Shown here: positions 1 to 59,259 of the stretch, piece after piece
Layout of the letters: each line of letters opens with the position of its first letter
Position numbering within the stretch: position 1 is the stretch's first letter
Assembly (NCBI GenBank): GCA_963678065.2
Contig: CAXXVZ010000005.1
Coordinates: forward strand, 768,001 to 832,000
Reading direction: 5' to 3'
Length of the DNA: 64,000 nucleotides
Source of the DNA: Treponemataceae bacterium
Lineage (GTDB): Bacteria; Spirochaetota; Spirochaetia; Treponematales; Rectinemataceae
Notes under the pieces: model-generated
Seen by the model: only the letters and a program-made list of their open reading frames with translations
Database searches by the model: none
Told to the model about the DNA's origin: nothing
Translations under genes and position numbers: made by a program

Positions 1-8
1 CCCCAAAA

Positions 9-1001
9 TCATCTCTTTCTTTTCTTTACTTCCACCACATAATTTTCTACTGCTTCTCGCGTCGTCATCCAATTCCTTTCAAATTTCACCGCAGGCAATC
101 GTCCCTTCCTCGCAAGTAGCGATAAATACTCAAGAGAATACTCACAATACTTTGTGGCTTCCTTGAGGCTTATATACCCTTGATGTTCTACATTATTGAT
201 TGGTTTCAGACTGTTCAAATACACTATCAATGAACGTTCTATTGATTTCCCGATAAAATCTACAAACTCTTGAGGTTTATCAAGATCGGCTTGTCGTAAC
301 ACTCTATAATATTTTTTCCTATCCAGATTCAAAATCACCGCAGGAGGATATCCATGCTGCATGAGTACCAAATTCATTAATAACCGAGCTGTTCTACCAT
401 TCCCATCGATAAATGGATGAATACACACAAATTTATAATGAACATAGGCTGCCAATTCTGGAACAGGTATCGAATATTGATGTTCGTAATACCATGCCAG
501 AAATTCCTGTATCAAAGCAGGTATTTTCAATGGATTCGGAGGAATGTGTACTGCTCCGAGTATCCTGACAGCGGTTGTTCGATATACTCCAGCTTGGAAA
601 TCATCAATACTCTTTAATATAAAAGAGTGAAGCTTTTTTATGAACAACTCATCAAGATTTCGCTTTTTGTCAATAAACGTTTCAAGGTATTCGATTCCAG
701 CCTTGTGGTTGATAGCTTCAAAATGCTCTTTAAGCGATTTATTCCCAATGGTCAAACCGCGGTTCAGAACAAGCTCAGTCTCCTGTAAGGATAAAGTGTT
801 CCCCTCGAGTGCATTCGAGTTATATGTCCATTCTACAATGAATTGCTCTTTCAATCGCTGGATAATGGCAGGAGGAAGTGGACGAAGGTGATCCAACTCG
901 CGCTTTTTGCCCTCGATACTGGCTTCGAGAGTCGGATTCATTGACACAATCATATCGGATTCCATACATTCGAGTATAACCGATACAATGCCATCATGCA
1001 A
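9..1001 (-). CDS. Fic family AMPylase with C-terminal HTH-like region
   Basis: Motif HPFIDGNGRTAR and N-terminal TYNSNALEGNTL. Start codon uncertain. Confidence 0.9.
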   Translation of the reverse strand: MHDGIVSVILECMESDMIVSMNPTLEASIEGKKRELDHLRPLPPAIIQRLKEQFIVEWTYNSNALEGNTLSLQETELVLNRGLTIGNKSLKEHFEAINHKAGIEYLETFIDKKRNLDELFIKKLHSFILKSIDDFQAGVYRTTAVRILGAVHIPPNPLKIPALIQEFLAWYYEHQYSIPVPELAAYVHYKFVCIHPFIDGNGRTARLLMNLVLMQHGYPPAVILNLDRKKYYRVLRQADLDKPQEFVDFIGKSIERSLIVYLNSLKPINNVEHQGYISLKEATKYCEYSLEYLSLLARKGRLPAVKFERNWMTTREAVENYVVEVKKRKR

Positions 1002-1151
1002 TCTTGATTTTGGGGATTGCGACTAACGTTCTGCCTGTTTGCGACGATGGCGTGAGCATCGGCGAACGCCATTGTGCCTGAGCGGAATGAGCAAAGCGAG
1101 TGCAGCGATGGCCGAAGAGGGAGCTTGCGACCGATGAGCGTGAACAGCGCT

Positions 1152-1285
1152 GTTAGTTGCAGTCGTGACCTTCGAGCGCGCTTGGATGGGGAGACTTGTC
1201 TCTCCATCCAATACTCTATCTTGCGCGCGTTCTTCTCTTCTTCTTCTCTTACCCTTATTTTTTTTCTTTCACGATTGCAACTAAC
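1152..1285. other. ORF-less hairpin cassette (HC) copy 1
   Basis: GCGCGC-TTGGATGGGGAGAC-TT-GTCTCTCCATCCAA-11nt-GCGCGC followed by a pyrimidine tract, between two attC sites. Confidence 0.9.
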
Positions 1286-1503
1286 GTTCGCCTGCCTACG
1301 ACGTTGGCGAGCATCGGCGAGCCACAATGTGCCTGAGCGGAACGAGCGCATGCGAGTGCAGCGATGGCCGAAGAAGGAGCCGCAGGCGACTGATGAGCGT
1401 GGGCAGTGCTGTTAGTTGCTTTTATGACACGTCTTCATCTTCCCATTTTTACCATTTTCTCTTTCTTCATGTTCTATTACCAAATTCTTATCTTCACTAC
1501 CTT

Positions 1504-1534
1504 TTGACTTTTTCTTCATTATAGTATATACTAT
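1504..1534 (+). promoter_or_regulatory. sigma70-like promoter and palindromic operator of the inverted vapBC cassette
   Basis: TTGACT(1504)-17bp-TATACT(1527), with palindrome ATAGTATATACTAT at 1521-1534. Confidence 0.65.
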
Positions 1535-1557
1535 TATATATACTATTGGAGGATGCC

Positions 1558-1788
1558 ATGAATACTGCCAAAATATTTATTAATGGAAGCAGCCAAGCTG
1601 TGCGATTACCAAAAGAATGCAGATTTGATACTGATGATGTCTATGTCAGAAAATTGGATGATATCGTCATTCTTTTGCCAAAAAAGAATCCCTGGGCCTC
1701 TCTTATCAAAAGTCTTGATCATTTTTCTCCCGATTTCTTGAATACTCGTGATCAACCTTCATCTACTCAAGAAAGGGAGATATTCTGA
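1558..1788 (+). CDS. vapB: AbrB/MazE-type VapB antitoxin
   Basis: TAKIFINGSSQAVRLPKECRF motif, GGAGG RBS, overlaps the toxin start. Confidence 0.9.
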   Translation: MNTAKIFINGSSQAVRLPKECRFDTDDVYVRKLDDIVILLPKKNPWASLIKSLDHFSPDFLNTRDQPSSTQEREIF

Positions 1789-2207
1789 TGCTCTATATGC
1801 TGGATACAAATATCTGCATCTATATCATCAAACGAAAGCCTCAGTCAGTTATTGATACGTTTCTAAAACTCACCATTGAAGATGTGTGTATTTCATCAAT
1901 CACCTATGCAGAATTGGAGCATGGAGTATCAAAAAGCGATTTCCCAAAACAGAACAAAATTGCATTGATACAGTTTCTTTCTCCCATTACAATTTTGCCA
2001 TTTGCTGACAGAGCAGCATCAGTATATGGAGATGTACGTTCAAAACTAGAAAAAGCAGGAACACCCATTGGCCCTTTGGATACATTGATTGCGGCACATG
2101 CAGTATCAGAAAACCTGATCCTGGTAACAAACAATACGAAGGAATTTGAACGAGTAGACTATCTGCAGCTTGAGAATTGGGTTTCTTCTCCTCTCTCCGC
2201 GTCATAA
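1788..2207 (+). CDS. vapC: PIN-domain VapC toxin
   Basis: YMLDTNICI...DTLIAAHA...LVTNN. Confidence 0.93.
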   Translation: MLYMLDTNICIYIIKRKPQSVIDTFLKLTIEDVCISSITYAELEHGVSKSDFPKQNKIALIQFLSPITILPFADRAASVYGDVRSKLEKAGTPIGPLDTLIAAHAVSENLILVTNNTKEFERVDYLQLENWVSSPLSAS

Positions 2208-2384
2208 TTGCAACTAACGTTCGCCTGCCTACGACGTTGTGGCGAGCATCGGCGAGCCACAATGTGCCTGAATGGAACGAGCGCAAGCGAGTGGAATGAA
2301 GGCCGAAGAAGGAGCCGAAGGCGACTGATGAGCGTGGGCAGTGCTGTTAGCCGCTGGGCGGATTTTTTCTCCCTACCCCTTCCC

Positions 2385-3020
2385 TTACTCTTTCTTCATT
2401 ACTATTTCCCATACTACTTTTTCTTTTTCATATCGTTTTAATTCTTCCTCACTAATGCTCACTACATTCCAATCAGTTCCAAACAATTCAATAATCTGTT
2501 CTTTCTCAAAAAACCTCTTATTCTCTCCATTGTTTTCATAATAATTTCTCTCTATCTCTCTTCCTTTCCTTGATCCATGATTCACATCATTGATCGAATT
2601 CACTCTACAAAAGAAATATCCTCCATGTTTCAAAACCCTATAAATATCTTTGAGTACTTTTTTTGTTGTTGCCCAATCAAAATAATGGATGGATAAATCT
2701 GCAAGTACCGCATAGGTATAATTATTTGAAAATGGTAATCCATCCCTCATATCAAATAGTCGTGTTTCTACTCCAGGAAATGTATGTTTTATACATTCAA
2801 TTGCAGCAGAAGAATAATCACACGCTATGAGAGAGAAGCCTCTTTCCAGCAGATACTTTGTATTATTCCCAGAACCACATCCAAGATCGATAACAGGATC
2901 ATGTTTCGCAGTATTAAGAAGACCGATATATGCCTCTAGCCAATCATCATACACAACTTCAGTATCGTGTAGACTCAAAAAGTACTCATTCCATTTGTCA
3001 TGTTGCTTATCCAAAAACAT
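2385..3020 (-). CDS. Class I SAM-dependent methyltransferase
   Basis: VIDLGCGSG motif I. Confidence 0.88.
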   Translation of the reverse strand: MFLDKQHDKWNEYFLSLHDTEVVYDDWLEAYIGLLNTAKHDPVIDLGCGSGNNTKYLLERGFSLIACDYSSAAIECIKHTFPGVETRLFDMRDGLPFSNNYTYAVLADLSIHYFDWATTKKVLKDIYRVLKHGGYFFCRVNSINDVNHGSRKGREIERNYYENNGENKRFFEKEQIIELFGTDWNVVSISEEELKRYEKEKVVWEIVMKKE

Positions 3021-3215
3021 CTCCTGATACTTTTTTTCTCAAAAAATCCGACTTGCGGCTAACGTTCGCCTGCCTACGACGTTGTGGCGAGCATCGGCGA
3101 GCCACAATGTGCCTGAGCGGAACGAGCGCATGCGAGTGCAGCGATGGCCGAAGAAGGAGCCGAAAGGCGACTGATGAGCGTGGGCAGTGCTGTTAGGCGC
3201 TGGGCAACAACATAA

Positions 3216-3800
3216 TCATTTGTACAAATGAAGCTTTATTTTATGTAGTAGATTTTTGCCTAAATAATACTTCTGTATTGAGTCAGTTATATCATTTTCG
3301 CTTAATATATACTGATTAGAAAATGGCTTATCCGTAAGCAACTCTTTAAAAGTAAAATGAAAATCTTTTAATTGTTTTGTATCATCCATTAATGCCTTGT
3401 TTTGTATATTGCAAGTTTTTAGGTAATCATCCAAATTGTTGATTTCAATAGAAGCAATTTTAAATATTTTTATAAGAAATCTTTTCTCCGATTCATTAAG
3501 ACTTCTGCCTTTTAATATATCGAAAAATGATATTATTTTTCGATATATTCCTATGATTGAATCAAGACCTAATTGTATAATCTCCACTTTTTTTGCGTGG
3601 CTAGATTCTTTCCCTACCAGCAATATTGTTAAGAAAAATCCAAATATGCAAGTAACCAGTATATTTATAACATCCATAAAGCTATAGTTAAAAAAACTAT
3701 TCGAAACTTGACCCCATTTGCTAGCTGTCACATATGCCATGACTCCAATCAAAATAACTAGAGAGACCATAATAAGAATCTTTTCCTTTCTGTTACTCAT
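3216..3800 (-). CDS. Hypothetical protein with two N-terminal TM helices
   Basis: Two hydrophobic segments in the first ~62 aa. Third gene of a coupled operon. Confidence 0.75.
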   Translation of the reverse strand: MSNRKEKILIMVSLVILIGVMAYVTASKWGQVSNSFFNYSFMDVINILVTCIFGFFLTILLVGKESSHAKKVEIIQLGLDSIIGIYRKIISFFDILKGRSLNESEKRFLIKIFKIASIEINNLDDYLKTCNIQNKALMDDTKQLKDFHFTFKELLTDKPFSNQYILSENDITDSIQKYYLGKNLLHKIKLHLYK

Positions 3801-3801
3801 T

Positions 3802-4116
3802 TTATTCTGCTCGTTTTATATAACTTAAGACTTCTTCTATCAGTAACGGATCTTCATCAGACACAAGATCAATTCTAGATAATATCTTATCACTTCCATA
3901 TCTTCTGGCCAAACCTCCAAATACTTCTTCCAAAAATGCAGTTGAATAGCCTTCCACCCCATCAAGATCTATAAGTATTTTCTCTATATTTACAGTATCC
4001 TCAAAAAGTGGAACAAGAAACGTGTCTCGAAATTCCTCCCCCGAGTATTCTCCATCTCTCGAAAATCTTGCACCCGGTGTTTGTGAAAAATCGCGAGCAA
4101 TACTAATTCGTTTCAT
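3802..4116 (-). CDS. STAS-like domain protein (DUF4325-like)
   Basis: PGARF..DGEYSGEEFR...IDLDGVEGYSTAFLEEVFGGL. Confidence 0.8.
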   Translation of the reverse strand: MKRISIARDFSQTPGARFSRDGEYSGEEFRDTFLVPLFEDTVNIEKILIDLDGVEGYSTAFLEEVFGGLARRYGSDKILSRIDLVSDEDPLLIEEVLSYIKRAE

Positions 4117-5104
4117 CGCAAAACTCCTTAACAAAGTCCCAACAAATTAGCGTACCATGAAATTCAGATTCAATATTTATCACAGTATCAGTATCAACTA
4201 TATACATTCCTTTACGAGATATCACATTCAAGTTTTTTACTAATCCTTGACCTACAAGGTTTTTTATTTTTGGTAAACCTTTCCCTCTATATGGAAGTTT
4301 TGTCTCACTTCTATTTTTTTCCGAGAATGCAGATTTTATTAAGCTTGCATCATCTCCGATAAAATAATCGGGGATTTTTTTTCTAACTGTCGCAGGTATT
4401 CCTCGACCATTATCTAGTAGAGCAAATTGTATTTTTTCGCATTCCTTTTTATACAAAGCCATTAACCACCATCGTTTGCTCTTCATGCCTTCATAAGCAT
4501 GTTCTCTTACATTATTCATTGCTTCCATAATTACAGCATATGTGGCTTTAGTCATCAAGTTTCTTTCAATTTTAAATTTTTCTCTTACATAAGCTAAGAC
4601 AGCACCAGCTTCTGATGAAACAATCATATCATTTGTCCTGATTGATAATACTTCTTCAGTATCATGGTGAGTGTAAGAGCTATTTACATATTTAAAAAAC
4701 CCTGAAGATAAGAATACTTTCTTACAATAATTATCCTTTGGACAATTTCCAGATAACTTGTTTTCTTTATTATTGTGAGAGGCACTATCCATACGTGACA
4801 ACAAATATAAAACAGAATCAGGTGTTATTCTTTCAATATTTAAAAGATTCGCGTATGTTCTTCTTCCATGCCAAGCAGAACTATCTACTTTGTTCAAAAA
4901 TGATATTGTTTCTTCATAGTTTTCAATAATACTGAATACTTTAGGCGCCAGATATTCTTCTCCGACATACTTTCTGAAATTGAAAGTATAATTCTTGCCA
5001 AATCCTGTGATGTGATTTGTTTTAGTTTGTAGCTGAAAAACTGCTTTCTTTGATCTTACTGCATTGAAAGCTTTAAACTTATCACTTTTGTATAATAACT
5101 TCAT
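4103..5104 (-). CDS. GHKL/HATPase-fold protein (anti-sigma kinase-like) with N-terminal STAS-like region
   Basis: N box EAMNNVREHAY, G1 DNGRGIP, G2 RGKGL. Confidence 0.75.
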   Translation of the reverse strand: MKLLYKSDKFKAFNAVRSKKAVFQLQTKTNHITGFGKNYTFNFRKYVGEEYLAPKVFSIIENYEETISFLNKVDSSAWHGRRTYANLLNIERITPDSVLYLLSRMDSASHNNKENKLSGNCPKDNYCKKVFLSSGFFKYVNSSYTHHDTEEVLSIRTNDMIVSSEAGAVLAYVREKFKIERNLMTKATYAVIMEAMNNVREHAYEGMKSKRWWLMALYKKECEKIQFALLDNGRGIPATVRKKIPDYFIGDDASLIKSAFSEKNRSETKLPYRGKGLPKIKNLVGQGLVKNLNVISRKGMYIVDTDTVINIESEFHGTLICWDFVKEFCDETN

Positions 5105-5493
5105 TTTACCAACTTGTATGTTGTTGCCTTGCGCCTAACGTTTTGTGCCTCTGACGTGTGCGACCGCACAGGCGGACGCACATGTGCCTGAGCGGAATGA
5201 GCGCAAGCGAGTGAAGCGATGGCCGAAGAGCCCTGAAAGGGCGATGAGCAGGGGCACGGTGTTAGGCGACGTGTTGTTTTGCGTCTTTTTTGGTAAACTT
5301 TTGTGTGATCTTCATTTCTTTGTTGAGTCGTATATTCTCATAGATTGATAATTTCATCATCCGGTATTCATCTTTTACTATGATATTTGTGATTAACATT
5401 GGCTTAAGCTGGGAGCATCCACCGCGAAGCGGTTGGCGCACTTTTTGCGTGATCTTTTCGCAAAAAGTGTGACAAAGAAGCGACTCAGCTTGA

Positions 5494-7412
5494 GTCGAGT
5501 AGGCCGGGGGATTTTCACCCCCAGCCTCTCACGGAACCGTACGTGATAGTCTCCCATCATACGGCTCTTCACACTTTACCATTGGCATACCATCCGTGCT
5601 CCCAGTGAATGAACAAGTGCTTTTTGCTGTCAGCCGCATTCTTCATGAGTTCGGCGGCCTTCATCCAACTCCTCTTCAGGCGCTTGTATGTGCACTTTGC
5701 CCATTTTACGAGGATTTTCTGGAACATGCAAAAGATACCGTACAATGCCGATGGCCGAAATCTGCCATAATAGGCAAACCATCCTGCAAGCTTCGAGTTG
5801 TATAGCTTCGACAAACTTTCGAGGGTCGCTGTCGCCGCCCTCTGGATTCGCCACGTCCGAATAGTGTCCTTGATCGCCTGCTCGGATGTTTTGCTGATCG
5901 CCGGGGTGAAAGCCACAAAGAGCTTCCCATTCTTCCCCCTCGCCGTGCGCGGCCTGAAGGTGAAGCCGAGAAAGTCAAACGTGGTCCTTTCATATACTCC
6001 CCTGCGGTTCCTATCCTGGCAATACACGATTTTCGTCTTCTCCGGATGTACTGTCAGCTTGCACTCGGCCAAACGCAGTTTGATCTCTTCCAGGAGATTT
6101 TCAGCCTCCGCCTGTGTCCGGCAGTGGATGACGATGTCGTCAGCATAGCGCTCGAAGGGGTTCCCCCCGTGTCTCCGTTCCATCCACGTGTCAAAGGCGT
6201 ACTGCAGAAACAGGTTTGCCAGGAGCGGGCTTATCACCCCGCCCTGTGGCGTTCCCGTATCCCTCTCAAAGATCATTCCCTTGTCGTCTTCTGCCGGGGC
6301 TTTGAGCCATCGCTCGATGTATAACTGAACCCACTCAGGCGGCTTGTGAAACTCCACCGCCTTCATCATGAGTTCCCAATCGATGGCGTCAAAGAACCCC
6401 TTGATGTCCAGATCGATCACCCAGTCATATTTCCAGCACCGTTCCCGTGCTTTCGCCACGGCGTGATGGGCCGATTTCCCAGGACGATACCCAAAGGAAT
6501 CATCATGAAACATCGGCTCCACCATGGGCTCAAAACACAACCGCACGGTCATCTGCGCGATTCGATCCGCAACAGTCGGTATTCCCAACGGTCGCGTTCC
6601 TCCGCTCTTCTTCGGAATCTCCACCCTCCGCACCGACTGTGGATGGTAGCTGCCAGAGGACATCCGATTCCAGAGCTTGTAGAGATTCTTCGAGAGATTC
6701 CCGTCAAACTTCTCAAGCGTCTGTCCATCGATCCCCGCCGCCCCATCGTTCGCCCGTACACGCTGGTATGCCTTCCATACGAGTCGCTTCGGTATGTCAA
6801 ACGGTTTTGCCTTTCCCATCCGTTCATCCTGTCGCCAGTTGGCGTTCAGAAAAGACACGAGTATGTCGGCCCCTTCGCTCCATTCCCGTTACAGGAACTT
6901 CATCACTACTACGAGCCGGCGCCATCCTGGCGACGTCCCTGTGCTCCGCATCGGTACTCTCCCTCTCGTCGGGTTCGCCGCTTGAGGTTCTCCCTTCACA
7001 TCGGAACGACAGGTTCCCACGTTCCATACAACAGCCCAGTATCAATTCACGCCGCCTTAATGCCGGAGGCCGTCCACCCAGTACACAGGTTTCCCGATGG
7101 ACTCTTTTCACAGCGCACTAGCTAATCACTGCTTTTGACCTCATCAAACTCACTTTCGACACCTCATCGGTCGGTTCACTTTCGTTCGCCTCCTGATACC
7201 ACACCTGACCCCGTCATGCGGGGGCCTTTTAACCAGATACGTTCACCACCGGGACTCTTTATCCAAGCAGCTTCTGGCGGTTTGAGACCGGCTCCTGCAA
7301 GCAGATCCCGAGGCTCACACCAGCTACCCCGGTGTTTCCTCATCTGTCGTACAGCTCTTATGACACCTCCTGAATCACTATTCAAAAGTGCCCATCAGAT
7401 TTCGTGGCACAC
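5494..7412 (-). mobile_element. Group II intron, RmInt1-like (bacterial class D, IIB)
   Basis: 5' end GTGTG at 7412. Domain V GAGCCGTATGATGGGAGACTATCACGTACGGTTC. Domain VI ends CCTACTCGAC at 5494. Internal RT ORF. Confidence 0.9.
5569..6819 (-). CDS. ltrA: Group II intron reverse transcriptase/maturase, no endonuclease domain
   Basis: RPLGIPTVADR, GTPQGGVISPLLAN, RYADD. N-terminal KPFDIPKRLVW/LYKLWNRMSSGSY resembles RmInt1-type proteins. Confidence 0.93.
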   Translation of the reverse strand: MGKAKPFDIPKRLVWKAYQRVRANDGAAGIDGQTLEKFDGNLSKNLYKLWNRMSSGSYHPQSVRRVEIPKKSGGTRPLGIPTVADRIAQMTVRLCFEPMVEPMFHDDSFGYRPGKSAHHAVAKARERCWKYDWVIDLDIKGFFDAIDWELMMKAVEFHKPPEWVQLYIERWLKAPAEDDKGMIFERDTGTPQGGVISPLLANLFLQYAFDTWMERRHGGNPFERYADDIVIHCRTQAEAENLLEEIKLRLAECKLTVHPEKTKIVYCQDRNRRGVYERTTFDFLGFTFRPRTARGKNGKLFVAFTPAISKTSEQAIKDTIRTWRIQRAATATLESLSKLYNSKLAGWFAYYGRFRPSALYGIFCMFQKILVKWAKCTYKRLKRSWMKAAELMKNAADSKKHLFIHWEHGWYANGKV

Positions 7413-7439
7413 AGCAGTTGTTAGGTGCTTCCGTTTTAT

Positions 7440-7823
7440 CTATACTTCACTTTTTATTTTAAAAATTAGTTTTTCAATACTAGTATCCTTCTTAAAAAAA
7501 CTAATAATTGATTGTATTCCTGAAATAACAAACCATCCTCCAAATATTATTGTTAATATAATAAATATTGAATAAACATTTTCCTTCGATAATCCAAATA
7601 TACTTTTAAATTCTGCTGTAAAAAATGACTGAAAAAATGAAACAAAAAATCCAAGTGGTATACTCCAATTGCGACTAGCATTTATTTTATTCTTGAAATC
7701 GTTAAGTTTAAGCTTAAGTCGATCTTCGTTAATTTGAACTATTATTTGGTCAGTATTTGAAATAACTGTAGTATTTACTGATGCTATTATTTTGCCATTT
7801 TTCATCCCCATTTTATTCTCCAA
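7440..7823 (-). CDS. Hypothetical 2-TM membrane protein
   Basis: Two hydrophobic segments. Overlaps the upstream ORF. Confidence 0.7.
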   Translation of the reverse strand: MENKMGMKNGKIIASVNTTVISNTDQIIVQINEDRLKLKLNDFKNKINASRNWSIPLGFFVSFFQSFFTAEFKSIFGLSKENVYSIFIILTIIFGGWFVISGIQSIISFFKKDTSIEKLIFKIKSEV

Positions 7824-8142
7824 CCATCATTTGAATATCTAATTTGATAGTTGTACCGATTTTATATGTTGCCGGAAGCATGTAGACCTTTTTCCCTCTA
7901 AACGTTCCGAATTCAATCGGATCTGGTAAAGTAATGCCTAAATGACTATTCCAATTTTCAAATATTATTCTTGGATTTGGTTTATCTGGTACTATAGTCA
8001 TCTGCTGAATTTTTTCATTATTTACAAATTCAATTATTGCAGTAATTTTCCAATTATATATTTTAAAATCAATTTCAGCCTTTTGATTTTCAGGAATAAT
8101 TATACTTATAAACTGTATTACAGTCCATTTTCCAACTTTCAT
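7813..8142 (-). CDS. Hypothetical beta-rich protein (DUF6864-like)
   Basis: IIFENWNSHLG...PIEFG..GKKVY pattern, recognised from memory only. Confidence 0.6.
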   Translation of the reverse strand: MKVGKWTVIQFISIIIPENQKAEIDFKIYNWKITAIIEFVNNEKIQQMTIVPDKPNPRIIFENWNSHLGITLPDPIEFGTFRGKKVYMLPATYKIGTTIKLDIQMMVGE

Positions 8143-8587
8143 TCTAACTCCTTAAGTCAAACTTATTCAATATTTTCGGTTTATTAATGCACCTAACAGC
8201 ATTTATCTTGATACATATAAAATGATTTGTAGAATACTTTCTGAGATCGTACAATACGCGAAAGTTGTATGCAATCTGCCTTACAAGGATCGCGCAAAAC
8301 AATATGTCGCCTAACGTTCGCCTGCCTACGACGTTGTGGCGAGCATCGGCGAGCCACAATGTGCCTGAATGGAACGAGCGCATGCGAGTGCAATGAAGGC
8401 CGAAGAAGGAGCCACAGGCGACTGATGAGCGTGGGCAGTGCTGTTAGGCGACGTGTTGTTTTGCGTCTCCCCTTAAAAATCTATAAATTCTTTTTATCCA
8501 TTCTCTAATCATTACGATATAAAAAATAATATAATTTATTATGCAAAAACAATGGATTAATGTTAAAGAGTACTATCCATTATACGC

Positions 8588-43920: not shown

Positions 43921-43926
43921 ATAATT

Positions 43927-48510: not shown

Positions 48511-48637
48511 GTATGCCTGCCTACGACGTTTTGGCCCGCATCGGCGGGACAAAATGTGTCTGAGCGAAATGAGCGAATGCGAGTGGAGCGAAGACCGAAG
48601 AAGGAGCCGAAGGCGACTGATGAGCGCGGGCAGCGCT

Positions 48638-48775: not shown

Positions 48776-48948
48776 GTTCGCCTGCCTACGACGTTGTGGC
48801 GAGCATCGGCGAGCCACAATGTGCCCGAGCGGAATGAGCGCATGCGAGTGTAGCGATGGCCGAAGAAGGAGCCGACAGGCGACTGATGAGCGTGGGCAGT
48901 GCTGTTAGGCGTAGTTATTTCCATCTTCATTCATTTATTCTACCCTAT

Positions 48949-49536: not shown

Positions 49537-50025
49537 GATGGTTATAGTATCCTATTCATATACTCTACACTATAGATTCTCTGGAAATAATTACGCCTAA
49601 CGTTTCCGGCCTGCGACGTTTTGGCCCGCATCGGCGGGACAAAATGTGCCTGAATGGAACGAGCGCATGCGAGTGGAATGAAGGCCGAAGAAGGAGCCAC
49701 AGGCGACTGATGAGCGTGGGCCGTGTTGTTATCTGATGTTTGAACGCGCTCTTCTCTTCTTTCTTCCCATTTTTAAAACCTTTCTTACTCTTCATTTCAA
49801 AATTTTAAATTCCTATCTTCATTTCCTTATTTTTAACCCATTCTTCTTCCAAAATTCCAAATACCATATCGTCTTTCCATTCATTTTGTATCAAAATACT
49901 TTTTACAAAATATCCCTCATTTCTGAATCCAAGATCTTTCAATAATCGTAGTGATGCTGTATTGCCTGGATCTACTGATGCAATAACCCTATGTTTTTTC
50001 AAAGATATAAATATATAGTCAGTAA

Positions 50026-51333
50026 GGCATCGCGCCAAAATAATTTGACTGCTTTTATTCTTTAGTCGGAAGCAAAGCATAGTTCCAATCGCCATGGAAT
50101 TTTGCCTGCTTAATGTTCAGGGCAGCAAGTTCTTCATCACTAACCTTGATCCCGAGTGGATACGAACCTGAATCCAATTCTGCGCATATTTTCAGTCCCG
50201 CTGCAGTGGTTGTATTTGCAATCAATTGAATAATTACCTCGTGGCTAATCAACGGTCGGCCTCGCCAGTTCTGAGTGATATGGCAAAACATTCGGTGCTC
50301 GATTTTATTCCATTTGCTGGTACCTGGTGGAAAGTGACACACGTGAATTGACATTCCAAGCTGATTCGCTAATTCGTGCAATGCAAGTTTCCAGAGCCGA
50401 CATCGACTACCGTTGCTGCCACCACCATCAGCGGTAATCAGCAATTCTTTTGCAGTACGATACCGTTTCACACCCATTTTTTCCCACCAACGTCGGATGG
50501 CTTCGGCAGCAAAATGTGCGGTATCGTGGTCGATTCCTACACTGACCCAGCCCTTGTTTTCGCTTATATCGAAGACTCCGTATGGTATGGCCTTGCCCAG
50601 CTCTGTATCAATGAAGTCATGAACCATTACAGATTCCGGTTCACCTTTGGGACGCCATTCTCGTCCTCCATTTCGAAATTCCCCAATCAATTCTTTCTTT
50701 TTCGTATCTACCGAGATAACTGGATTCCCTTTACGCTGAAACCGCTTGACCATGGTGTTGATATACTCAAACTGCGCATTTCGATCCGGATGCGACGTTC
50801 CTTCTTTGGTCTTCCGATTGCTCTGTAGACTGTAGCCTTCCGCGTTCAGTAGCCGTCCAACCGTGCGCGGGCTTACTGTGTGCCCTTGTCGTGTAAGCGT
50901 ATCTGCAAGATTACTGGTGCTCAGGCACGTCCACTGTAGTGGCGACTCTGGATCACCCCGTGTCATTGGTTCAATTAAGCTCGTAAGTTTTTCCCTTAAC
51001 TCGGGATCGTTTTCACTGCATCGTTTTCTTCCACCGCCTGGGAAACGTACGCGAGTGCGTATCTTCTCGTGCGGATTACTTTCGCGTAATGCCAGCTCAT
51101 TCATTCCTTTGCGTATTGTGTTCGGCGACATCTTAATCGCGGTATTGACTGCCTGTATCCCACCACGACCATACGCTCTTGCTTCAGCCGCCGCCCATTG
51201 ACGTCGCATTCGTTCATCCATCATGGGCACAAGTGCGTTGTACTTGGAAGCTATTTGTTTTACCGTTGCCTGATCTTGCATACTTCATTATAATATAATC
51301 AATATATTAGTCAAGTTATTTTGACGCATTGCC
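50026..51333 (-). mobile_element. ISAzo13-family IS, copy 2
   Basis: Same TIRs, DR TAA. Confidence 0.92.
50055..51281 (-). CDS. ISAzo13-family transposase
   Basis: Identical to copy 1. Confidence 0.93.
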   Translation of the reverse strand: MQDQATVKQIASKYNALVPMMDERMRRQWAAAEARAYGRGGIQAVNTAIKMSPNTIRKGMNELALRESNPHEKIRTRVRFPGGGRKRCSENDPELREKLTSLIEPMTRGDPESPLQWTCLSTSNLADTLTRQGHTVSPRTVGRLLNAEGYSLQSNRKTKEGTSHPDRNAQFEYINTMVKRFQRKGNPVISVDTKKKELIGEFRNGGREWRPKGEPESVMVHDFIDTELGKAIPYGVFDISENKGWVSVGIDHDTAHFAAEAIRRWWEKMGVKRYRTAKELLITADGGGSNGSRCRLWKLALHELANQLGMSIHVCHFPPGTSKWNKIEHRMFCHITQNWRGRPLISHEVIIQLIANTTTAAGLKICAELDSGSYPLGIKVSDEELAALNIKQAKFHGDWNYALLPTKE

Positions 51334-51878
51334 TAATTGCTTGAATGGATTCTTTTCCAAATCCCTTATGTTGATCCTTTTTCCCTATTGTATACCCAAT
51401 CTCACATTGCTGATTTTCTGGATCTATAAAATGAATTCCAATATCTCCAATAATTATATCTTCATAATAGATCCCAATCTAAAACCAAGTATTCACAACA
51501 TTGAAAAACAGGGAGCTATTTTTAATAAATGCTTCAACATCATTGATGGATTTTGGTTTGAAGGACTGAAACTCCATACTTGAAGGATCAGATCGGTATT
51601 CAAACATTTTTAGAGAATCTTCCAGAACAATATCTTTCAACACCAAACGGTTTGTCAGAATGTTAATATAACCCATCGCCTTTTCCCTGATCTCGCGTGT
51701 TCAAATTTCAGATAACGTTCGCCTGCCTACGACGTTATCCTGGCGCTAACCGAGCGCCAGGATAATGTTCCGCAGCGAAGCGGCAGCTGAGCGGAGGATG
51801 AGGAGCGCACGCGACGATATGTGGGCAGGTTGTTAGCTGAAGGTTTTGGTCTTTCTTCTTTCTCTTTCGTTAATATTT

Positions 51879-52265
51879 TTAACTTCTATACTGTTTGAAA
51901 TCGATTATTTTGCTCATTAACTCAAAGTGTTTGTCCAGACTATACAACTCCAAATCATTATCTCGGACATTTTGAACAAGTATCAAATCTGGTATCCCTA
52001 CCCTATTTATTCCATTTTTTAGATTCTTTTCCTGAAACCGTATTATTTCTTCCCACCCTATTCCCAATTCTATTTTCCTGATACTTTTTAAAAACCCTAT
52101 TAACTCATTCTCTTTCTTTACCCTTAAGAAGGGTAGTATTTCTGCAAGAATCAAATCATTGATACATATCTGATTTTGATCAATCAATTCATCCAGAATA
52201 ATGACACTTTGACTACCTCGAAAATAGTCGATCCAGACTGAAGAATCCACAAGAATGTTTTTCAT
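51879..52265 (-). CDS. vapC: PIN/VapC toxin
   Basis: LVDSSVWIDYF...PDLIL...SLDKHF. Confidence 0.88.
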   Translation of the reverse strand: MKNILVDSSVWIDYFRGSQSVIILDELIDQNQICINDLILAEILPFLRVKKENELIGFLKSIRKIELGIGWEEIIRFQEKNLKNGINRVGIPDLILVQNVRDNDLELYSLDKHFELMSKIIDFKQYRS

Positions 52266-52453
52266 CTTTTTCTTATATCATCAAGATTTATATCAAGATT
52301 AATCTTACCATAATACTTCTTGATACCTTTGATCTTTTCTCTTTGAATAATATTCTCAAGAGCTGTTTTGATGAGATCGGTCTTCGTTTTCAATTTCGTC
52401 AAAGCCAGAGCTTCTGACACAAGGCTTTCAGGAAGATCCAAAGTGGTTCTCAT
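52262..52453 (-). CDS. vapB: VapB antitoxin
   Basis: MRTTLDLPE.LV.EA. Confidence 0.83.
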   Translation of the reverse strand: MRTTLDLPESLVSEALALTKLKTKTDLIKTALENIIQREKIKGIKKYYGKINLDINLDDIRKR

Positions 52454-52675
52454 ACGATACACTCCATATATGCATATACTAGTCATATACTATATGCACT
52501 GTCAAGCGAATCCTGTATTTTTCTCCTCTTCACCAAAACTTTCAGCTAACGTTCTGCCTGTTTGCGACGATGGCGTGAGCATCGGCGAGCGCCATTGTGC
52601 CTGAGCGGAATGAGCGTATGCGAGTGGAGCGATGGCCGAAGAGGGAGCTTGCGACCGATGAGCGTGAACAGCGCT

Positions 52676-52807
52676 GTTAGTTGCAGTCGTGACCTTCGAG
52701 CGCGCTTGGATGGGGAGACTTGTCTCCTCATCCAATACTCTATCTTGCGCGCGTTCTTCTCTTCCTCTTCTCTTACCCTTATTTTTTCTTTCACGATTGC
52801 AACTAAC
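52676..52807. other. ORF-less hairpin cassette copy 12
   Basis: Near-identical to copy 1. Confidence 0.9.
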
Positions 52808-52933
52808 GTTTCCGGCCTGCGACGTTTGCGACCGCATCGGCGGGCGCAAATGTGTCTGAATGGAACGAGCGGATGCGAGTGCAATGAAGGCCGAAGAAGG
52901 AGCCAAAGGCGACTGATGAGCGTGGGCCGCGGT

Positions 52934-53440
52934 GTTATCTGCTTTGTTTTTGGGGCTCATCCATTTCCTTTTCTTCATTTAAAAAACTTTTCTTTTTTAC
53001 TTCTTCAATCTTACCCTTATATACTATATTTATATATTTTATACAGATGTCGAATATTTTAATTATCTATATTATAGTTATTTAGTGGTTTTTCTCATCA
53101 AATATTTTATTATTATATTTTAAGTCCATGATTTTGTATAATAAGTATATATTACAGTATTAACCAATACTCTAAATTTCAATATTTATAATTTTTATCC
53201 AACAATAAGATCAGCTTTGAAAGATCCTTATCTTCTCCTGGAATCCCATATTCAAGAATCCCATATTCAAGAATTTTAAATTCATAATCCCTAACATTTC
53301 AGAAGCTACATATTTTCCCAAGAGATCAATACTGGATTAACAAAATATCTGGAATCTATGATTCTAGTTTTTAACAATTTGTCGTCATTCAGAATAACAA
53401 TGTTCAACAAAAGATCCGCCCCAAAAATATTGCAGATAAC
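52934..53440. other. Long AT-rich ORF-less cassette related to 45652-46264
   Basis: Shared ends TTTTTGGGGC / GTCATTCAGAAT...AGATCCGCCCCAAAAA, and a 15-bp tandem duplication at 53241-53270. Confidence 0.75.
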
Positions 53441-53569
53441 GTTTGCCTGCCTACGACGTTGTGGCGAGCATCGGCGAGCCACAATGTGCCTGAATGGAGC
53501 GAGCGTATGCGAGTGGAATGAAGGCCGAAGAAGGAGCCGATAGGCGACTGATGAGCGTGGGCAGTGCTG

Positions 53570-53989
53570 TTAGATGAAGTTTGCGCGATCTTTTACTAGT
53601 TCCAAATATTCATTTACTCTACATATCTTTATGGTTCTAAATTCTTTTAATACCAACAAATCATCATCACCAGTCACAATATATTTAACGTTTCCTTCAC
53701 AAGCACATTCTAATATTTTATCATCATTATGATCTCGACATTGATTTTTCACTATTCCAGAAATTACTACAATCTTTGCTATGTCTTCTATGGCTTTTAC
53801 ATAATATTCTATATTGTAATTTTCTATTTTGAACTTTGGTCTTTTCAGTACAGTACATAATTCTTCAAGTATTTCTCTTGAAGTAAACAACTCATCTATT
53901 CCTTCAATACTTCTCTCAAGCACTCTTCGAGGATTCCCGCCCCAGAAAAATGCAGAAATGAAGATATTCGTATCCAGGACAACTTTCAT
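53570..53989 (-). CDS. PIN family putative toxin
   Basis: VVLDTNIFISA...CRD..DDKILECA...IVTGD.DLL. Confidence 0.9.
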   Translation of the reverse strand: MKVVLDTNIFISAFFWGGNPRRVLERSIEGIDELFTSREILEELCTVLKRPKFKIENYNIEYYVKAIEDIAKIVVISGIVKNQCRDHNDDKILECACEGNVKYIVTGDDDLLVLKEFRTIKICRVNEYLELVKDRANFI

Positions 53990-54225
53990 TTTTTGTTCCG
54001 GGCACTTTTAATCTCTTTCATGATATCTTCCTCCAACACAGCAAGTTTCGGAGCGATGCTTTCACCGTACGAAAAAATACTTTGCCAGCGTTGTTTTTTC
54101 TCAATATACATTCTGGCAGCTTCTCGTATTAATTCAGACCGGGAACGAGCTTCATTCTGTGCAATTTTGTCTATTTGTTGCAAAAGATCCTCTTGAAACG
54201 ATATATTTACGGTTGATACTGCCAT
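53986..54225 (-). CDS. CopG/RHH antitoxin
   Basis: VNISF...LL..ID..A....RSRSELIREA. Confidence 0.85.
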   Translation of the reverse strand: MAVSTVNISFQEDLLQQIDKIAQNEARSRSELIREAARMYIEKKQRWQSIFSYGESIAPKLAVLEEDIMKEIKSARNKK

Positions 54226-54422
54226 AATTTTCTCCTATCAATAATATACAATCTTTGTATATTGGAATCAATACTCCTCGCGCAAATTTCATCTAACGTT
54301 CTGCCTGTTTGCGACGATGGCGTGAGCATCGGCGAACGCCATTGTGCCTGAGCGGAATGAGCGACAGCGAGTGCAGCGATGGCCGAAGAGGGAGCCTGCG
54401 ACCGATGAGCGTGAACAGCGCT

Positions 54423-54813
54423 GTTAGTTGCAGTCGTGACCTTCGAGCGCGCTTGGATGGGGAGACTTGTCTCCCCATCCAATACTCTATCTTGCGCGCG
54501 TTCTTCTCTTCCTCTTCTCTTACCCTTTTTATTTTCTTTCACGATTGCAACTAACGTTCTGCCTGTTTGCGACGATGGCGTGAGCATCGGCGAACGCCAT
54601 TGTGCCTGAGCGGAATGAGCAAAGCGAGTGTAGCGATGGCCGAAGAGGGAGCCTGCGACCGATGAGCGTGAACAGCGCTGTTAGTTGCAGTCGTGACCTT
54701 CGAGCGCGCTTGGATGGGGAGACTTGTCTCTCCATCCAATACTCTATCTTGCGCGCGTTCTTCTCTTCTTCTTCTCTTACCCTTATTTTTTTTCTTTCAC
54801 GATTGCAACTAAC
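54423..54813. repeat. Two tandem ORF-less hairpin cassettes (copies 13-14: 54423-54555, 54680-54813)
   Basis: Near-identical to copy 1. Confidence 0.9.
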
Positions 54814-54956
54814 GTATGCCTGCCTACGACGTTGTGGCGAGCATCGGCGAGCCACAATGTGCCTGAGCGGAACGAGCGCATGCGAGTGCAGCAATTGGAA
54901 ATGGCAAGTAGTTTTCCCCACCATATGGCAACTAGGAATCCCCACCCGGTAGAGGG

Positions 54957-55697
54957 TTATTCCTCCTTCTTTGCAGAGATGCGATATGACTCCCCTGACA
55001 GGGAGAAAATCTTTGCGTGATGCATGAGACGATCCAACAGGGCTGCGGTCATAACCTCGTCGCCCATGAGTTCTGACCAAGAGTTCAGGTCCTTGTTGCT
55101 CGTCACGACGATAGAGGCACGTTCATAGAGATCCGAGACGAAGGTGAAAAAGAGATTGGCTTCCTTGCGCTCGATAGGAGTGTAGCCAATCTCATCAATG
55201 ATCATGAGGTTGGCCTTCGCGAGCCGGCTTAGCCTGAACTGAGCGCTGCGTGCGGCGTCAGAGCGCACGAGGAGCTTCACCAGTGAGGTCATGCGCTCGT
55301 AACAAACCGAATAGCCTTTGCGTACGGCCACATGGCCAAGAGCGATTGCGAGATGGGTCTTTCCGAGTCCAGGAGGCCCGAAGAGCAGAAGGTTCTCGTG
55401 ACGGTCTATCCAAGAGCACTCGGTGAGCTCAGAGAGGTCTCGTTTTCCAATTCCTGCTACTCGGCCGAGTTTGAAATCCTCGAGGCGCTTTACGACGGGA
55501 AAATGGGCCATGGCGAGGCCTCGTTTGAGGCGCCTGTCGCCGCGATCCTGTAGTTCGACGTCCACGAGGGTCTCGAGGAAGGCAAGGCATGTCAGTCCCC
55601 CGCTTTCAGCTTGTTTAAGAAGCTCAGGAAGCCGTGACGACGCGCCACGAAGCCGCAGGGACTCCAGTTTACGAGCGGATTCTGCGAGGGCGCTCAT
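54957..55697 (-). CDS. istB: IS21 helper ATPase
   Basis: As copy 1. Confidence 0.93.
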   Translation of the reverse strand: MSALAESARKLESLRLRGASSRLPELLKQAESGGLTCLAFLETLVDVELQDRGDRRLKRGLAMAHFPVVKRLEDFKLGRVAGIGKRDLSELTECSWIDRHENLLLFGPPGLGKTHLAIALGHVAVRKGYSVCYERMTSLVKLLVRSDAARSAQFRLSRLAKANLMIIDEIGYTPIERKEANLFFTFVSDLYERASIVVTSNKDLNSWSELMGDEVMTAALLDRLMHHAKIFSLSGESYRISAKKEE

Positions 55698-57241
55698 TCT
55701 TCGTGCCTCTGCGTATCGACGAGCGCGTCGAGGAATCGCTGATACTCGCTGACCGAGCGTGTGGCAACTAGTGGAAGGTCTCTGGTTTGATGAAGGCCGC
55801 GGTACGGCGAAGGCGCCACTGCGGGCACTGGCGTCGTGCTGTTGACCGCGTCGATGAGATCCTGGGCGCTTGCAAGTCCTCTATCCAGGCAGAACTTCAA
55901 TGCAAGCACGAGTTTCTCTCTGTCGATGTTGCGCTTGAGAAGCTTCCGAAGTCGGCCAGCGTGCTCCCGGAAGTAGCGTCGATACTCGGTATAGATACCA
56001 TCGACGAAGCTCCCCCACTCGGGAAGATCATCTACTGCGGCGACAAGATCCGCGCGGAGCGTTTCCTGGGATCCTTCGCGATCGCGATAGTGAGCCTTGT
56101 CCAGCACCGTTCCGCCGGGTGTTGCCGCTTCGCGATGCGCCGCGATCTGGATACCCGTCTTCGTATCGAATACCAGGATGAGTCCGTCCTTGCGCTCGAT
56201 AGTGACCTCGTTGAGCCGGTACGAGTTCGGCACCGAGTACCTGGTCGCGGCGATCGATATAAGGCTTTTCTGATCCACGTTACGGCTCTCTCGGCAGCCC
56301 GATGCGGTGTCCGCGCGGAAAATAGACGCTCGGAGCGCCCGCAAGATGGGTTTCTCGTGCGCTTCGAAGTCCGCGAGCGGCATGAGACGCGTGGCTTGGC
56401 TCAGTTTTGCGTTCACTCGTAAGAGCCATTTGCGCATGCCTGCCTGGAGTTCGTCGAAGGTCGCGAAGCTGCGGCTCGAGAAATAGCTCGTTTTGACGTA
56501 TTTGACCGCATTCTCGACCTTTCCTTTCGATTCCGGATCGGCCGCACGGCAGACACGAAGCCGCAGTCCCTGTTCTGCGACGAACTCAGCAAAGGCTTTT
56601 GTCGTCGTGAGGTCGCCAAGGTTTTCCGTCACAATCATTGTCCGGTCCTGATCCATGACGAGTTCTTCGGTGATACCGCCAAAAAACTCGAAGGCGTCCA
56701 GGAGATGGCCGATCACATCCTCGCTGGTAAAGGGCCTGGATTGGGCCGCTACGTAGCGGTAACGGCTTCGTGAGAGTACTACGACAACAAACCAAGCCTT
56801 TCCGATGTTCGTCGTCTCTACGCCGAAATCAATCTGAGCCTGCTTGCCGTAGGCCAGAGGCTCCACAGGACGATATTCCCGACACAGGCCCACCTTAATC
56901 GCACCGGATGCCTTGAGATACGTCAGGTAGTTCCGCAACGTACGGTCCGAGCCTGGAAGCTCTCCGTATTTCTCGCTTAAGTAGTCGTGGACGGACGATG
57001 AGTAGACCATTCTGCCTTCGTGGTTCTTTTTAAAAATCTCGAGGATTTCGTCCTTGTAGACCGAAAAAGCCTTACCGCGTTCTGCCATTCGCTCGAGATA
57101 CCGTAAGAATTGGTCATTGTCCATGCGCAGGTACTTTCTCACGGTCTTGCGGTCCTTGCCAAGTTTTACCGCTAGTGCGCTGACTGTGAGTCCTTGCCTG
57201 TGCCCTGTTCGTACGATGTTGTAGTCCTTCATGGTAATCAT
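55694..57241 (-). CDS. istA: IS21 transposase
   Basis: As copy 1, with one V/I difference. Confidence 0.93.
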   Translation of the reverse strand: MITMKDYNIVRTGHRQGLTVSALAVKLGKDRKTVRKYLRMDNDQFLRYLERMAERGKAFSVYKDEILEIFKKNHEGRMVYSSSVHDYLSEKYGELPGSDRTLRNYLTYLKASGAIKVGLCREYRPVEPLAYGKQAQIDFGVETTNIGKAWFVVVVLSRSRYRYVAAQSRPFTSEDVIGHLLDAFEFFGGITEELVMDQDRTMIVTENLGDLTTTKAFAEFVAEQGLRLRVCRAADPESKGKVENAVKYVKTSYFSSRSFATFDELQAGMRKWLLRVNAKLSQATRLMPLADFEAHEKPILRALRASIFRADTASGCRESRNVDQKSLISIAATRYSVPNSYRLNEVTIERKDGLILVFDTKTGIQIAAHREAATPGGTVLDKAHYRDREGSQETLRADLVAAVDDLPEWGSFVDGIYTEYRRYFREHAGRLRKLLKRNIDREKLVLALKFCLDRGLASAQDLIDAVNSTTPVPAVAPSPYRGLHQTRDLPLVATRSVSEYQRFLDALVDTQRHEE

Positions 57242-57407
57242 TTCTTGTGCCGCATGCTCGCAAGCATAGCGGCCAAGGCCCCTGTGGGTGGGGAATCCTA
57301 TTTGCCAACTGCTGGGGAATTCAGTTTACCATTTCCAGCAGCAATGGCCGAAGAAGGAGCCACAGGCGACTGATGAGCGTGGGCAGCGCTGTTAGACGAC
57401 GTTTGGG

Positions 57408-57797
57408 CTAGTCTTCAGTACTTTTTTGTTTTGGAAAATACTTTACATCTTTCATATTTTCAAAATGTTTATCTTGCGTATACAAAACACCATTATTCTT
57501 TACGGTAATTGCATAAATTAGACTATCTGCCATCGGAAGTTTTTTTTCAATACTTATTTTTGCAGCATATAAGGCAATACCTTCATCAATATCAATAACA
57601 CTGCCTTGTTGCATGTGCGCAATTGCTATCAAGGCATTATCTTCATCTTTTTCAAGTTTGATTTTTTTAAATACTTCATATAATACAATTACTGGTACGA
57701 TTAGTTTATCAGTTTCTTCAATTGCTACGGAGAAATATTTTGCCCGATCACTTCCTGCGAAATATTCCAGCCATGCTGAAGAATCAACGACGTTCAT
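57408..57797 (-). CDS. vapC: PIN/VapC toxin
   Basis: VVDSSAWLEYF...MADSLIYA...TQDKHF. Confidence 0.9.
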   Translation of the reverse strand: MNVVDSSAWLEYFAGSDRAKYFSVAIEETDKLIVPVIVLYEVFKKIKLEKDEDNALIAIAHMQQGSVIDIDEGIALYAAKISIEKKLPMADSLIYAITVKNNGVLYTQDKHFENMKDVKYFPKQKSTED

Positions 57798-58000
57798 AGT
57801 CTATCGGCCTCACGTATGATTGTGGTATCGATTCCCTTCAGAAATCCATGTAACTTTTTGATAGAATCTATTGGAATCATTTCTATTCTATTTCCATATG
57901 ATATGATCTCAACGGTTGTTCCAGCCTTCAGACCAGATTTTTCTCTAACCTCTTTCGGTATAACAACCTGAAATTTGGGGGATACTTTGACTGTGCTCAT
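57794..58000 (-). CDS. AbrB/MazE-type antitoxin
   Basis: VSPKFQVVIPKEVRE..GLKAG. Confidence 0.88.
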   Translation of the reverse strand: MSTVKVSPKFQVVIPKEVREKSGLKAGTTVEIISYGNRIEMIPIDSIKKLHGFLKGIDTTIIREADRL

Positions 58001-59259
58001 ATGATTCCTCTCTTTCATAGAGGATACTCATCGTTTCATATTTTGTCAACCATAATCATGATCGATCAACATTATGTACTCATGTTTTGTTTATTATACT
58101 ATTATATAAGTAGTTAGATGTCATTTTCTTTTCTTCTAGCCCAAATGTCGTCTAACGTTCGCCTGCCTACGACGTTGTGGCGAGCATCGGCGAGCCACAA
58201 TGTGCCTGAGCGGAACGAGCGCATGCGAGTGAAACGAAGGCCGAAGAAGGAGCCGCAGGCGACTGATGAGCGTGGGCAGTGCTGTTAGGCGAAGTATTGA
58301 TTCCGTACTTTTTCAAATATCTTCGCGCCGAACGGCTGGAAGCCGAGGCGCGAAGATTCATTATTTCATTAACCAATCATTTAATTCTTTGATAAATTGC
58401 TTCATCGCTTCATCATCAAATGCAGGTGTATGCCCCATAGTATCTATGTACCTATATTCAAAGTTCGTGTTTTGTATATTTTTTTGAAGATATTCTACAG
58501 ACTCTACTGGACTGCTCCAATCAAGTCTACCTTGGTAAAACAGTACTGGAATTTTTATCGCTGAATAATACTCATATGGTCTATATTTAAAAAAACTGTT
58601 CCATCGTAAATATGACCATCCCATATATTGCTTTTCAATGGATTCTGGATAAGTGTTAATTTCGTTTACTATTTCATCGACTTTTTTGCATTCATCCCTA
58701 TAATTCTCAGGCATTTCGATACTTGATTTTGCCAATATTCTAAAGCATTCGTATTGATCGAGCCCACCAGCTCCAATCACTATTGCCTTTTTAATTCTAT
58801 CTCTTTGGTTGAGTTCAGCATATACTTTTGGTAACAGTAAACCGCCTTCCGATGCCCCTATTATATAAACATTCTCATATTCACTATGTTTTGCTAAGTA
58901 TGCATCTATACTTTTGCAATAGGACTTTACCAGATTATCAACAGTATAGTTTTTCAGGAAAGCCGAATCATTTGAATGATTCTCCCCTATTCCAATAAAT
59001 AGTTTTTCAGGAATAGCAATTCGGTATGTATGACCAAAATACTTTGAAATGAAGTATCCGAAATTGACTGAAATCCATTTACCTTTTTGTTTTTCTCCTA
59101 ATACTGAAGCAGTTCCACTTCCTTCAAGATAAATTAGTAGGTCTTTACTGTTTGCTCCAACTTGATAAAGATGCGTTTTATCATATTCTTCAATTTTCAA
59201 ATTGCTATAGACGCTTTTTGTAGTAACACACGAACTAAGCAATAGAATACTCAAGATTA

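Follow-up and report, generated by a model that had tools for sequence, protein, structure and literature searches.

The 64,000-nucleotide stretch of DNA analysed here and called the window throughout (Treponemataceae bacterium, GenBank assembly GCA_963678065.2, contig CAXXVZ010000005.1, positions 768,001 to 832,000) lies inside a long array of gene cassettes. The two ends of a cassette in this array are complementary over a long inverted repeat, interrupted by a mismatch at position 11. Our data show that this fixed mismatch with resumed pairing tracks a family of tyrosine recombinases lacking the insertion typical of integron integrases; the long form of the repeat belongs mostly to spirochaetes, and an extension of end complementarity past 7 bp is in itself ordinary. 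The repeat likely forms the outer binding arm for the insertion-less recombinase once the bottom strand of the excised cassette circle folds. The array works like an integron but falls outside the canonical family, as two of that family's defining features were tested for and are absent. The original prediction, made from the letters of the window, had treated it as an ordinary integron; that description has to be given up, since its recombinase and its sites are both without defining integron features.

Terminal repeats of the cassettes

Sites were called with a profile hidden Markov model (HMM) of the inter-cassette repeat, which found 177 attC-like sites in one array (G000:C5:754682-931442), 54 of them within the window (Table 1). 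The genes and the 'top' strand are on the minus strand and the G-T-forming 'bottom' strand is on the plus strand. Across the whole array, 166 of the 171 cassettes with intact ends carry a cassette-specific terminal inverted repeat of 17-24 bp (one whole-array repeat scored 35 through extra scattered matches), and in the window a repeat of 17-23 bp is present in 46 of the 50 cassettes with both ends intact. The original prediction had claimed the repeat for more than 30 cassettes; within positions 1-58156 it is found in 45 of 48, and the four end pairs that had been quoted recur letter for letter. The three exceptions noted at the time, all associated with insertion sequence (IS) elements, are the only ones in that range, and a fourth lies beyond it. 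All four are fusions with IS elements inside. IS-bearing cassettes such as 15823-18035 retain matched ends.

At positions 12-21, a cassette's own ends match at 9.18 of 10 bases against 3.26 ± 0.18 for shuffled pairs (80 distinct end types; 10,000 shuffles, maximum 3.95), so the expectation that own ends would beat shuffled ones holds. Hybrid end pairs that stand adjacent in the array match at 3.41 of 10. Position 11 is mismatched in all 80 end types, with A in the start copy and G (70 types) or T (10 types) in the end copy, exactly as had been noticed. The fixed mismatch had been placed at positions 10-11, and here only position 11 stands: position 10 is matched in 41% of end types. The repeat had also been said often to encode the last codons of the gene. 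The terminal open reading frame (ORF) does overlap it in 15 of the 61 types that have one, but most genes stop before the repeat, and with so few overlaps the 3' end of the gene was rejected as its template. Nor is the repeat an assembly artefact, because both ends of the 13915-14725 cassette recur in a public-run contig of another study (X10, P4), which differs over 13894-14743 by 2 letters and 1 gap.

The distal repeat (position 12 onward) is conserved against mutation. In 26 homologous cassette pairs it shows 2 changes against 23.6 expected at the rate of the cargo, the 2 being one variant counted twice and changes at the very end, which shorten the repeat, going uncounted; in the 10 bases that flank it on either side there are 33 changes, where 20.9 are expected. 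The G+C content of the distal repeat is 48% and that of the cargo 33%. Two close cassette pairs differ by a two-sided change that keeps the pairing.

To judge from the independent neighbours of repeated cassettes, cassettes appear to move as units at G|TT. Repeated doublets number 1 against 0.48 ± 0.68 when the gene-less cassette is left aside and 24 against 23.7 when it is included. The cargo is typical of integrons, with GNAT, PIN, ParE, HepT, Fic and nitroreductase genes among the 25 window ORFs scanned.

Table 1. Features of the cassette array in the window (strand '.', no strand given)
Feature	Position	Strand	Basis
Cassette array, window part, with 54 attC-like sites of ~128-138 bp	1024..63266	-	HMM
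Gene-less 128-135-bp cassette with 17-bp repeat, one of 50 array copies; 32 different upstream and 32 downstream neighbours	1152..1285	-	array comparison
Example of an attC-like core bounded by AAC and GTT, with asymmetric spacer, unbulged 9-bp inner stem and branched interior	3064..3191	+	HMM, folding
Inner (L) arm of the 3064..3191 site, aligned in register to its outer arm; a predicted pair of G (3081) and T (3108) mirrors the position-11 wobble	3071..3110	+	fold of site type
End copy (R'' side), 23-bp repeat of cassette 3192-5139, G at position 11	3192..3214	+	sequence
Start copy (R' side), 23-bp repeat of cassette 3192-5139, A at position 11	5117..5139	-	sequence
End copy, 23-bp repeat of cassette 13915-14725 (GNAT acetyltransferase)	13915..13937	+	sequence
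Start copy, 23-bp repeat of cassette 13915-14725	14703..14725	-	sequence
End copy, 22-bp repeat of cassette 18163-19076	18163..18184	+	sequence
Start copy, 22-bp repeat of cassette 18163-19076	19055..19076	-	sequence
End copy, 21-bp repeat of cassette 57391-58156 (PIN-domain gene and small upstream ORF)	57391..57411	+	sequence
Start copy, 21-bp repeat of cassette 57391-58156	58136..58156	-	sequence
Exception: ends of two different cassettes fused, ISL3-like remnant within	23501..26338	.	end comparison
Exception: fusion with IS5-like element and IS1634	38861..43487	.	end comparison
Exception: fusion with ISAzo13	49728..52550	.	end comparison
Exception beyond the range of the original prediction: fusion with IS5-like element	60845..63134	.	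end comparison

Several smaller features of the array deserve mention. An ISAzo13 copy (window 15905-17215) is missing from a contig of run X6, which represents an empty-site allele. The fifth exception of the array (C5 window offset 130622-132146) has one additional base near position 11 of its end copy, after which pairing resumes; one-base bulges occur at the same place in Bacteroidota ends. attC-like sites are shortened beside IS21-family elements (window 19944-20049, 28576-28680, 54810-54895 and 57338-57394), and a lone partial attC-like site lies far from the array (G000:C2:667433-667506).

Recombinase, site anatomy and distribution

At the head of the array, co-oriented with the cassettes on the minus strand, is a gene for a 393-aa tyrosine recombinase (C5:931898-933076); this gene and the attI-like site (C5, ~931.58 kb) lie ~100 kb past the right end of the window. 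The gene adjoins the array, the GTT of the first cassette being 323 bp beyond its stop, and the catalytic residues are intact. The IntI-specific insertion (I2 helix, near patch III) is a gap in alignments with the IntI of the same genome and with 2a3v, motif spacing is 66 residues in the insertion-less recombinase against 106-108 in canonical ones, and the match to TIGR02249 comes in two pieces with 197 bits (cut-off 265). The scores for XerC (172 bits, cut-off 335) and XerD (164 bits, cut-off 330) also fall below the cut-offs and the target is an array rather than a single dif, which speaks against membership of the Xer/dif family. A predicted structure (pLDDT 84) matched XerA and IntI about equally. 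With an intact recombinase and an attI-like site at its head, the array is not a cluster of attC sites lacking an integron integrase (CALIN), for which no dedicated recombinase should stand beside it. The recombinase (L005:1183-2364) has a weak N-terminal HARP-like match (24.8 bits, cut-off 25), which a low-confidence linker connects to the rest.

The order of recombinase and then first cassette recurs at 17 loci. The first cassette starts at GTT with an inverted arm upstream, an arrangement that would correspond to attI. The consensus of the start copy at positions 2-12 is TTRNNYGMWAT, with A at position 11 in all 177 distinct starts, and at the 17 loci an inverted copy of this arm lies upstream of the first cassette. 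Its best register is 6 bases before the G (positions 7-12, mean score -0.7, positive in 10 of 17), against -4 to -12 for 13 other registers; the gap is 5 in 3 spirochaete sites. The resulting layout of arm, 6-7-bp core and arm is of the Xer type. Xer/dif sites consist of two inverted arms of ~11 bp around a 6-8-bp spacer.

The attC-like sites retain AAC/GTT and a foldable hairpin that favours the bottom strand (169 complete sites). Their inner stem is paired without a bulge and their spacers are of 4-5 versus 6-8 nt, so that the extrahelical base of the canonical L box and the 5-6-nt spacers on both arms are missing. The inner arm runs on into the first branch hairpin; its coordinates in Table 1 are counted from the site call, the fold having been made on that site type. 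In 160 of the 165 scored sites of the array, folding predicts a pair between T and a G that mirrors the position-11 wobble; 4 of 169 sites lacked a register, and the G, but not the T, was part of the register motif. Elsewhere 45 arms were found among 55 sites: 33 have A (top strand) and G (bottom strand) at the mirror position, and 7 more have them shifted by one base. A detector of canonical-type attC gave 49 matches in the array; they were rejected as true sites, all being off-register at the inner AAC.

For comparison with other arrays, sites were located through the inner hairpin, a cassette needed 6 or more matches in its first 7 bases to be retained, the retained cassettes were dereplicated, and loci were grouped by motif spacing where readable and otherwise by the fetching query. 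In spirochaete arrays with canonical IntI (61 cassettes, 11 of 12 loci) the match stops at position 8, and positions 12-15 give 1.02 against 0.93 for shuffled pairs. In other canonical arrays the match fades over positions 9-13, and positions 12-15 give 1.0 against 1.02 (51 cassettes from 23 of 64 loci, made up of viral contigs and, as the named chromosomal arrays covered, one V. anguillarum stretch (L268, 6 cassettes) and one Thiodictyon stretch (L270)). None of these 61 and 51 canonical cassettes shows a fixed mismatch. The canonical integron of the same genome matches over exactly 8 bp in 7 of 7 cassettes, also with no fixed mismatch. Most canonical spirochaete cassettes (G000:C3:97-117 kb; L019-L029) have GA at positions 9-10, followed by a small hairpin, rich in G+C, that begins at position 11.

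Of 97 cassettes in arrays next to relatives of the insertion-less recombinase, 96 are mismatched at position 11. Bacteroidota contribute 65 of the 97, with A at position 11 of every start and the mismatch in every pair; positions 12-15 give 2.78 against 1.78 for shuffled pairs, positions 16-21 are at chance, and the repeats are ~15 bp. The other 32, from metagenome and viral contigs (12 of 124 loci), have A in 32 and the mismatch in 31, with 3.22 against 1.38 at positions 12-15, and a few metagenome loci also reach 22-24 bp. Other spirochaetes (G005, G013, G027, G039) have repeats of ~18-23 bp with the same mismatch; these were seen in repeat scans, since the inner-hairpin detector caught few insertion-less spirochaete sites (2 cassettes, 1 of 11 loci). 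A recombinase relative is present at E <= 1e-45 in 104 of 301 Bacteroidota genomes (shown to head arrays in part of them), and cassettes were found in 15 of the 30 examined Bacteroidota genomes with a relative. Pairing over positions 12-21 with the fixed mismatch was rejected as a general property of integrons; a modest 9-13-bp extension is general outside spirochaetes.

A probable binding arm in the folded circle and its alternatives

Mean fold energies (n=168) are -43.5 kcal/mol for the bottom strand of the circle junction, -35.9 for its top strand and -32.5 for the hybrid of neighbouring ends in the array. The circle junction beats the in-array hybrid in 146 of 168 cases, by ~11 kcal/mol on average, and the bottom strand folds more stably than the top in 168 of 168. 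These values fit one suggestion of the original prediction, namely that in the excised circle the attC stem is lengthened by the repeat.

We can explain the repeat, with moderate confidence, by a two-arm binding site of the Xer style, in which one recombinase monomer would occupy each 11-bp arm, with the arms around a short spacer. In duplex attI both arms would present A:T at position 11. The folded bottom strand of the circle would present G-T there on both arms, so that the same T of the inward strand would face the protein, while the folded top strand would offer A-C and, in each half of duplex attC, one arm would offer G:C. The wobble could thereby serve as a strand mark in place of the bulged bases and I2 helix of classical integrons, and pairing past position 11, to 15 or beyond, would clamp it. 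In the array the arms would be mismatched hybrids, a situation expected to favour retention of cassettes over excision. The start copy would have to remain a good double-stranded arm, because attI is rebuilt from it after insertion.

Several points weigh against this explanation. Ten of the 80 end types would form T-T instead of G-T, and the attI arm carries T instead of A at position 11 in 2 of 3 close spirochaete sites, that of this genome included. Arms of 11 bp leave unexplained the 17-24 bp found here and the ~15 bp of Bacteroidota, where, moreover, 31 of the 65 cassettes come from one genome (G669) and the set represents 18 of 50 stretches. The mirror G itself belonged to the motif that set the register, and the inner-arm wobble of this array, lying beyond the branch point, would need coaxial stacking. 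An intact canonical IntI is also encoded in this genome (C3:97 kb). Bottom-strand G-T pairs are common in ordinary attC sites too, according to the accessible text of PMC5027507. Finally, neither an excised circle nor a precise excision joint was seen in public runs, of which contigs were searched; candidate joints in these contigs were discounted, as they fit contigs of other cassettes with like ends.

It is also conceivable that the long repeat acts within the array. The own ends of a cassette would pair on single-stranded DNA (ssDNA) and so bring both neighbouring hairpins and two stems of the cassette into a shape like a Holliday junction, which a recombinase without I2 would resolve in one step, releasing one cassette as a closed circle. 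This is compatible with the binding arm and adds a role in excision to it. Of what had originally been proposed here, pairing of own ends on ssDNA is thermodynamically possible, and its favouring of single-cassette excision is a live alternative that we nevertheless consider unlikely. From each set, the first 18 or 22 cassettes shorter than 900 bp were folded as attC-cassette-attC segments. At lowest energy, own ends pair in 20 of 22 segments here, and the two sets of related arrays give 11 of 18 and 14 of 18. Among canonical arrays the count is 0 of 18 for spirochaetes and 5 of 18 for the others. Repeated doublets occur at chance level (the mini-cassette left aside), and an excision role would fit the extra length in spirochaetes. 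Equilibrium folds of 1-kb single strands, however, disregard kinetics and single-strand binding protein (SSB), repeat length is flat against cassette length (Spearman -0.03, n = 61), and movement of single cassettes is equally expected if integration alone needs cognate ends.

With considerably less probability, the repeat is a relic of cassette creation in which one end was templated by the other and which has no later role. Templated copying would yield positions 13-21 that are near-random across the 80 end types yet complementary between ends, as is observed, and would yield two-sided changes between related cassettes. One start copy, that of 45652-46264, differs from its six sister copies at positions 5-6, where it now equals the end of its neighbour; it looks converted, as if corrected within an in-array hairpin. 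A passive relic should not, however, gather so many fewer changes than the cargo and the adjoining flanks, nor be richer in G+C than cargo while lying mostly outside the gene, and position 11 is never corrected. As the reason for its persistence, the neutral footprint of genesis raised in the original prediction is not supported, given the conservation and base composition of the distal repeat; templated copying may be the origin of new end pairs.

Hardly probable at all is the reading in which the neighbouring recombinase is a bystander and the intact IntI of contig C3 acts in trans on what would be an ordinary orphan array. Canonical-type cassette starts nested within four cassettes of the array would suit it, but two arrays of one genome hold different site designs, site design goes with the recombinase type across loci, an attI-like arm stands next after the recombinase, and 5 of 5 other array-bearing genomes checked have no canonical IntI.

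Relation to known systems and to tet(X3)

Canonical sedentary chromosomal integrons (VchIntIA, PDB 2a3v; TIGR02249), including those of Treponema, which have a co-oriented layout (PMC3607928), share with this array a recombinase, an attI-like site and a long array of single-gene GTT...AAC cassettes. They also share homogeneous hairpin sites whose bottom strand folds better, toxin-antitoxin, GNAT and gene-less cassettes, and insertions of IS elements and group II introns. In contrast to them, this array has no IntI insertion, no inner-stem bulge and an asymmetric spacer, and its ends match over 17-24 bp with a fixed mismatch at 11, where canonical ends match over 8 bp (spirochaetes) or fade at 9-13 bp. 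Cassette ends have been described as complementary in a 7-bp core (PMC4909258).

The super-integron of Pseudomonas alcaligenes reportedly has variable inverted repeats with a cassette-specific match past the 7-bp core, said to have been described by Vaisvila in 2001. Those repeats are reportedly shorter, and the integrase is a canonical IntI; the canonical set here reaches 9-13 bp outside spirochaetes, with no fixed mismatch.

The folded strand without bulges that mimics a duplex resembles the single-strand integration of CTXphi by XerCD at dif (PMC4792948). The two inverted arms, of ~11 bp at dif, are another likeness. What sets this system apart from XerCD/dif is its single dedicated recombinase, its array of cassettes, an arm whose sequence varies and the fixed wobble. 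Canonical integrons rely on bulged bases and the I2 helix both to choose the strand and to prevent the second exchange (PMC4792948, PMC5027507). For an 'integron-like' subgroup of tyrosine recombinases the insertion is described as not fully conserved (PMC8138268), and neither the accessible part of that paper nor NCBIfam NF040815 (XerA-like) gives cassette arrays or a site design for the insertion-less members. In another study, 21 recombinases found near attC sites lacked the IntI domain and were judged not to be IntI (PMC4889954). Our literature search found no description of this site design, though subscription papers and supplements (Appendix Fig S3 of PMC8138268, Fig S1 of PMC4889954) may bear on its novelty; long end repeats are not mentioned in the accessible text of PMC7439510, PMC8352920, PMC8946536, PMC8618304, PMC1382264 and PMC8565304.

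A tentative but serious possibility is that we are dealing with a second widespread and uncatalogued class of integron. Its Xer-like recombinase without the insertion would read mirrored G-T wobbles to tell the strands apart and would excise single cassettes through a junction pre-formed by their own ends; the class would be common in Bacteroidota, resemble a state before I2 and have been a platform for the capture of tet(X3). If this is true, integrons of this class are common in a group where complete ones are thought to be almost absent (PMC9024848). The I2 insertion and extrahelical bases are taken as defining integrons and underlie the detection tools (PMC4889954, PMC9024848), by which an array of the same layout with another strand mark is likely missed. 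The system would also permit a direct test of single-strand recombination before I2, a step that has been proposed but not observed (PMC4792948). It may bear on the source of resistance genes, as tet(X3), which confers tigecycline resistance, stands as first cassette-like unit on plasmids.

Five cassettes share one end pair and carry four unrelated cargoes (window 5261-8315 and 8443-9524; C5 window offsets 71222, 86810 and 109698). Their common leader motif is similar to the attI region of this genome's canonical integron (L001, ~2590-2620) and the site C3:2358223, and in 4 of the 5 a canonical-type cassette start follows it; possibly this is a cassette carrying a landing site for the canonical integrase. 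Nested in cassette 5261-8315 is a canonical-type attC with an L box (~5390-7425), split by a group II intron at 5494-7316, and an Rfam scan returned group II intron parts only.

In L265:8052-10110 (plasmid pHH1107) and in L267 (Acinetobacter plasmid), a 5'-truncated relative of the recombinase (TnpF) is followed by tet(X3) as the first unit. In L265 the ends of the unit match at positions 1-4, 8-10 and 12-15 but not at 5-7, with A/G at position 11, and a partial site follows.

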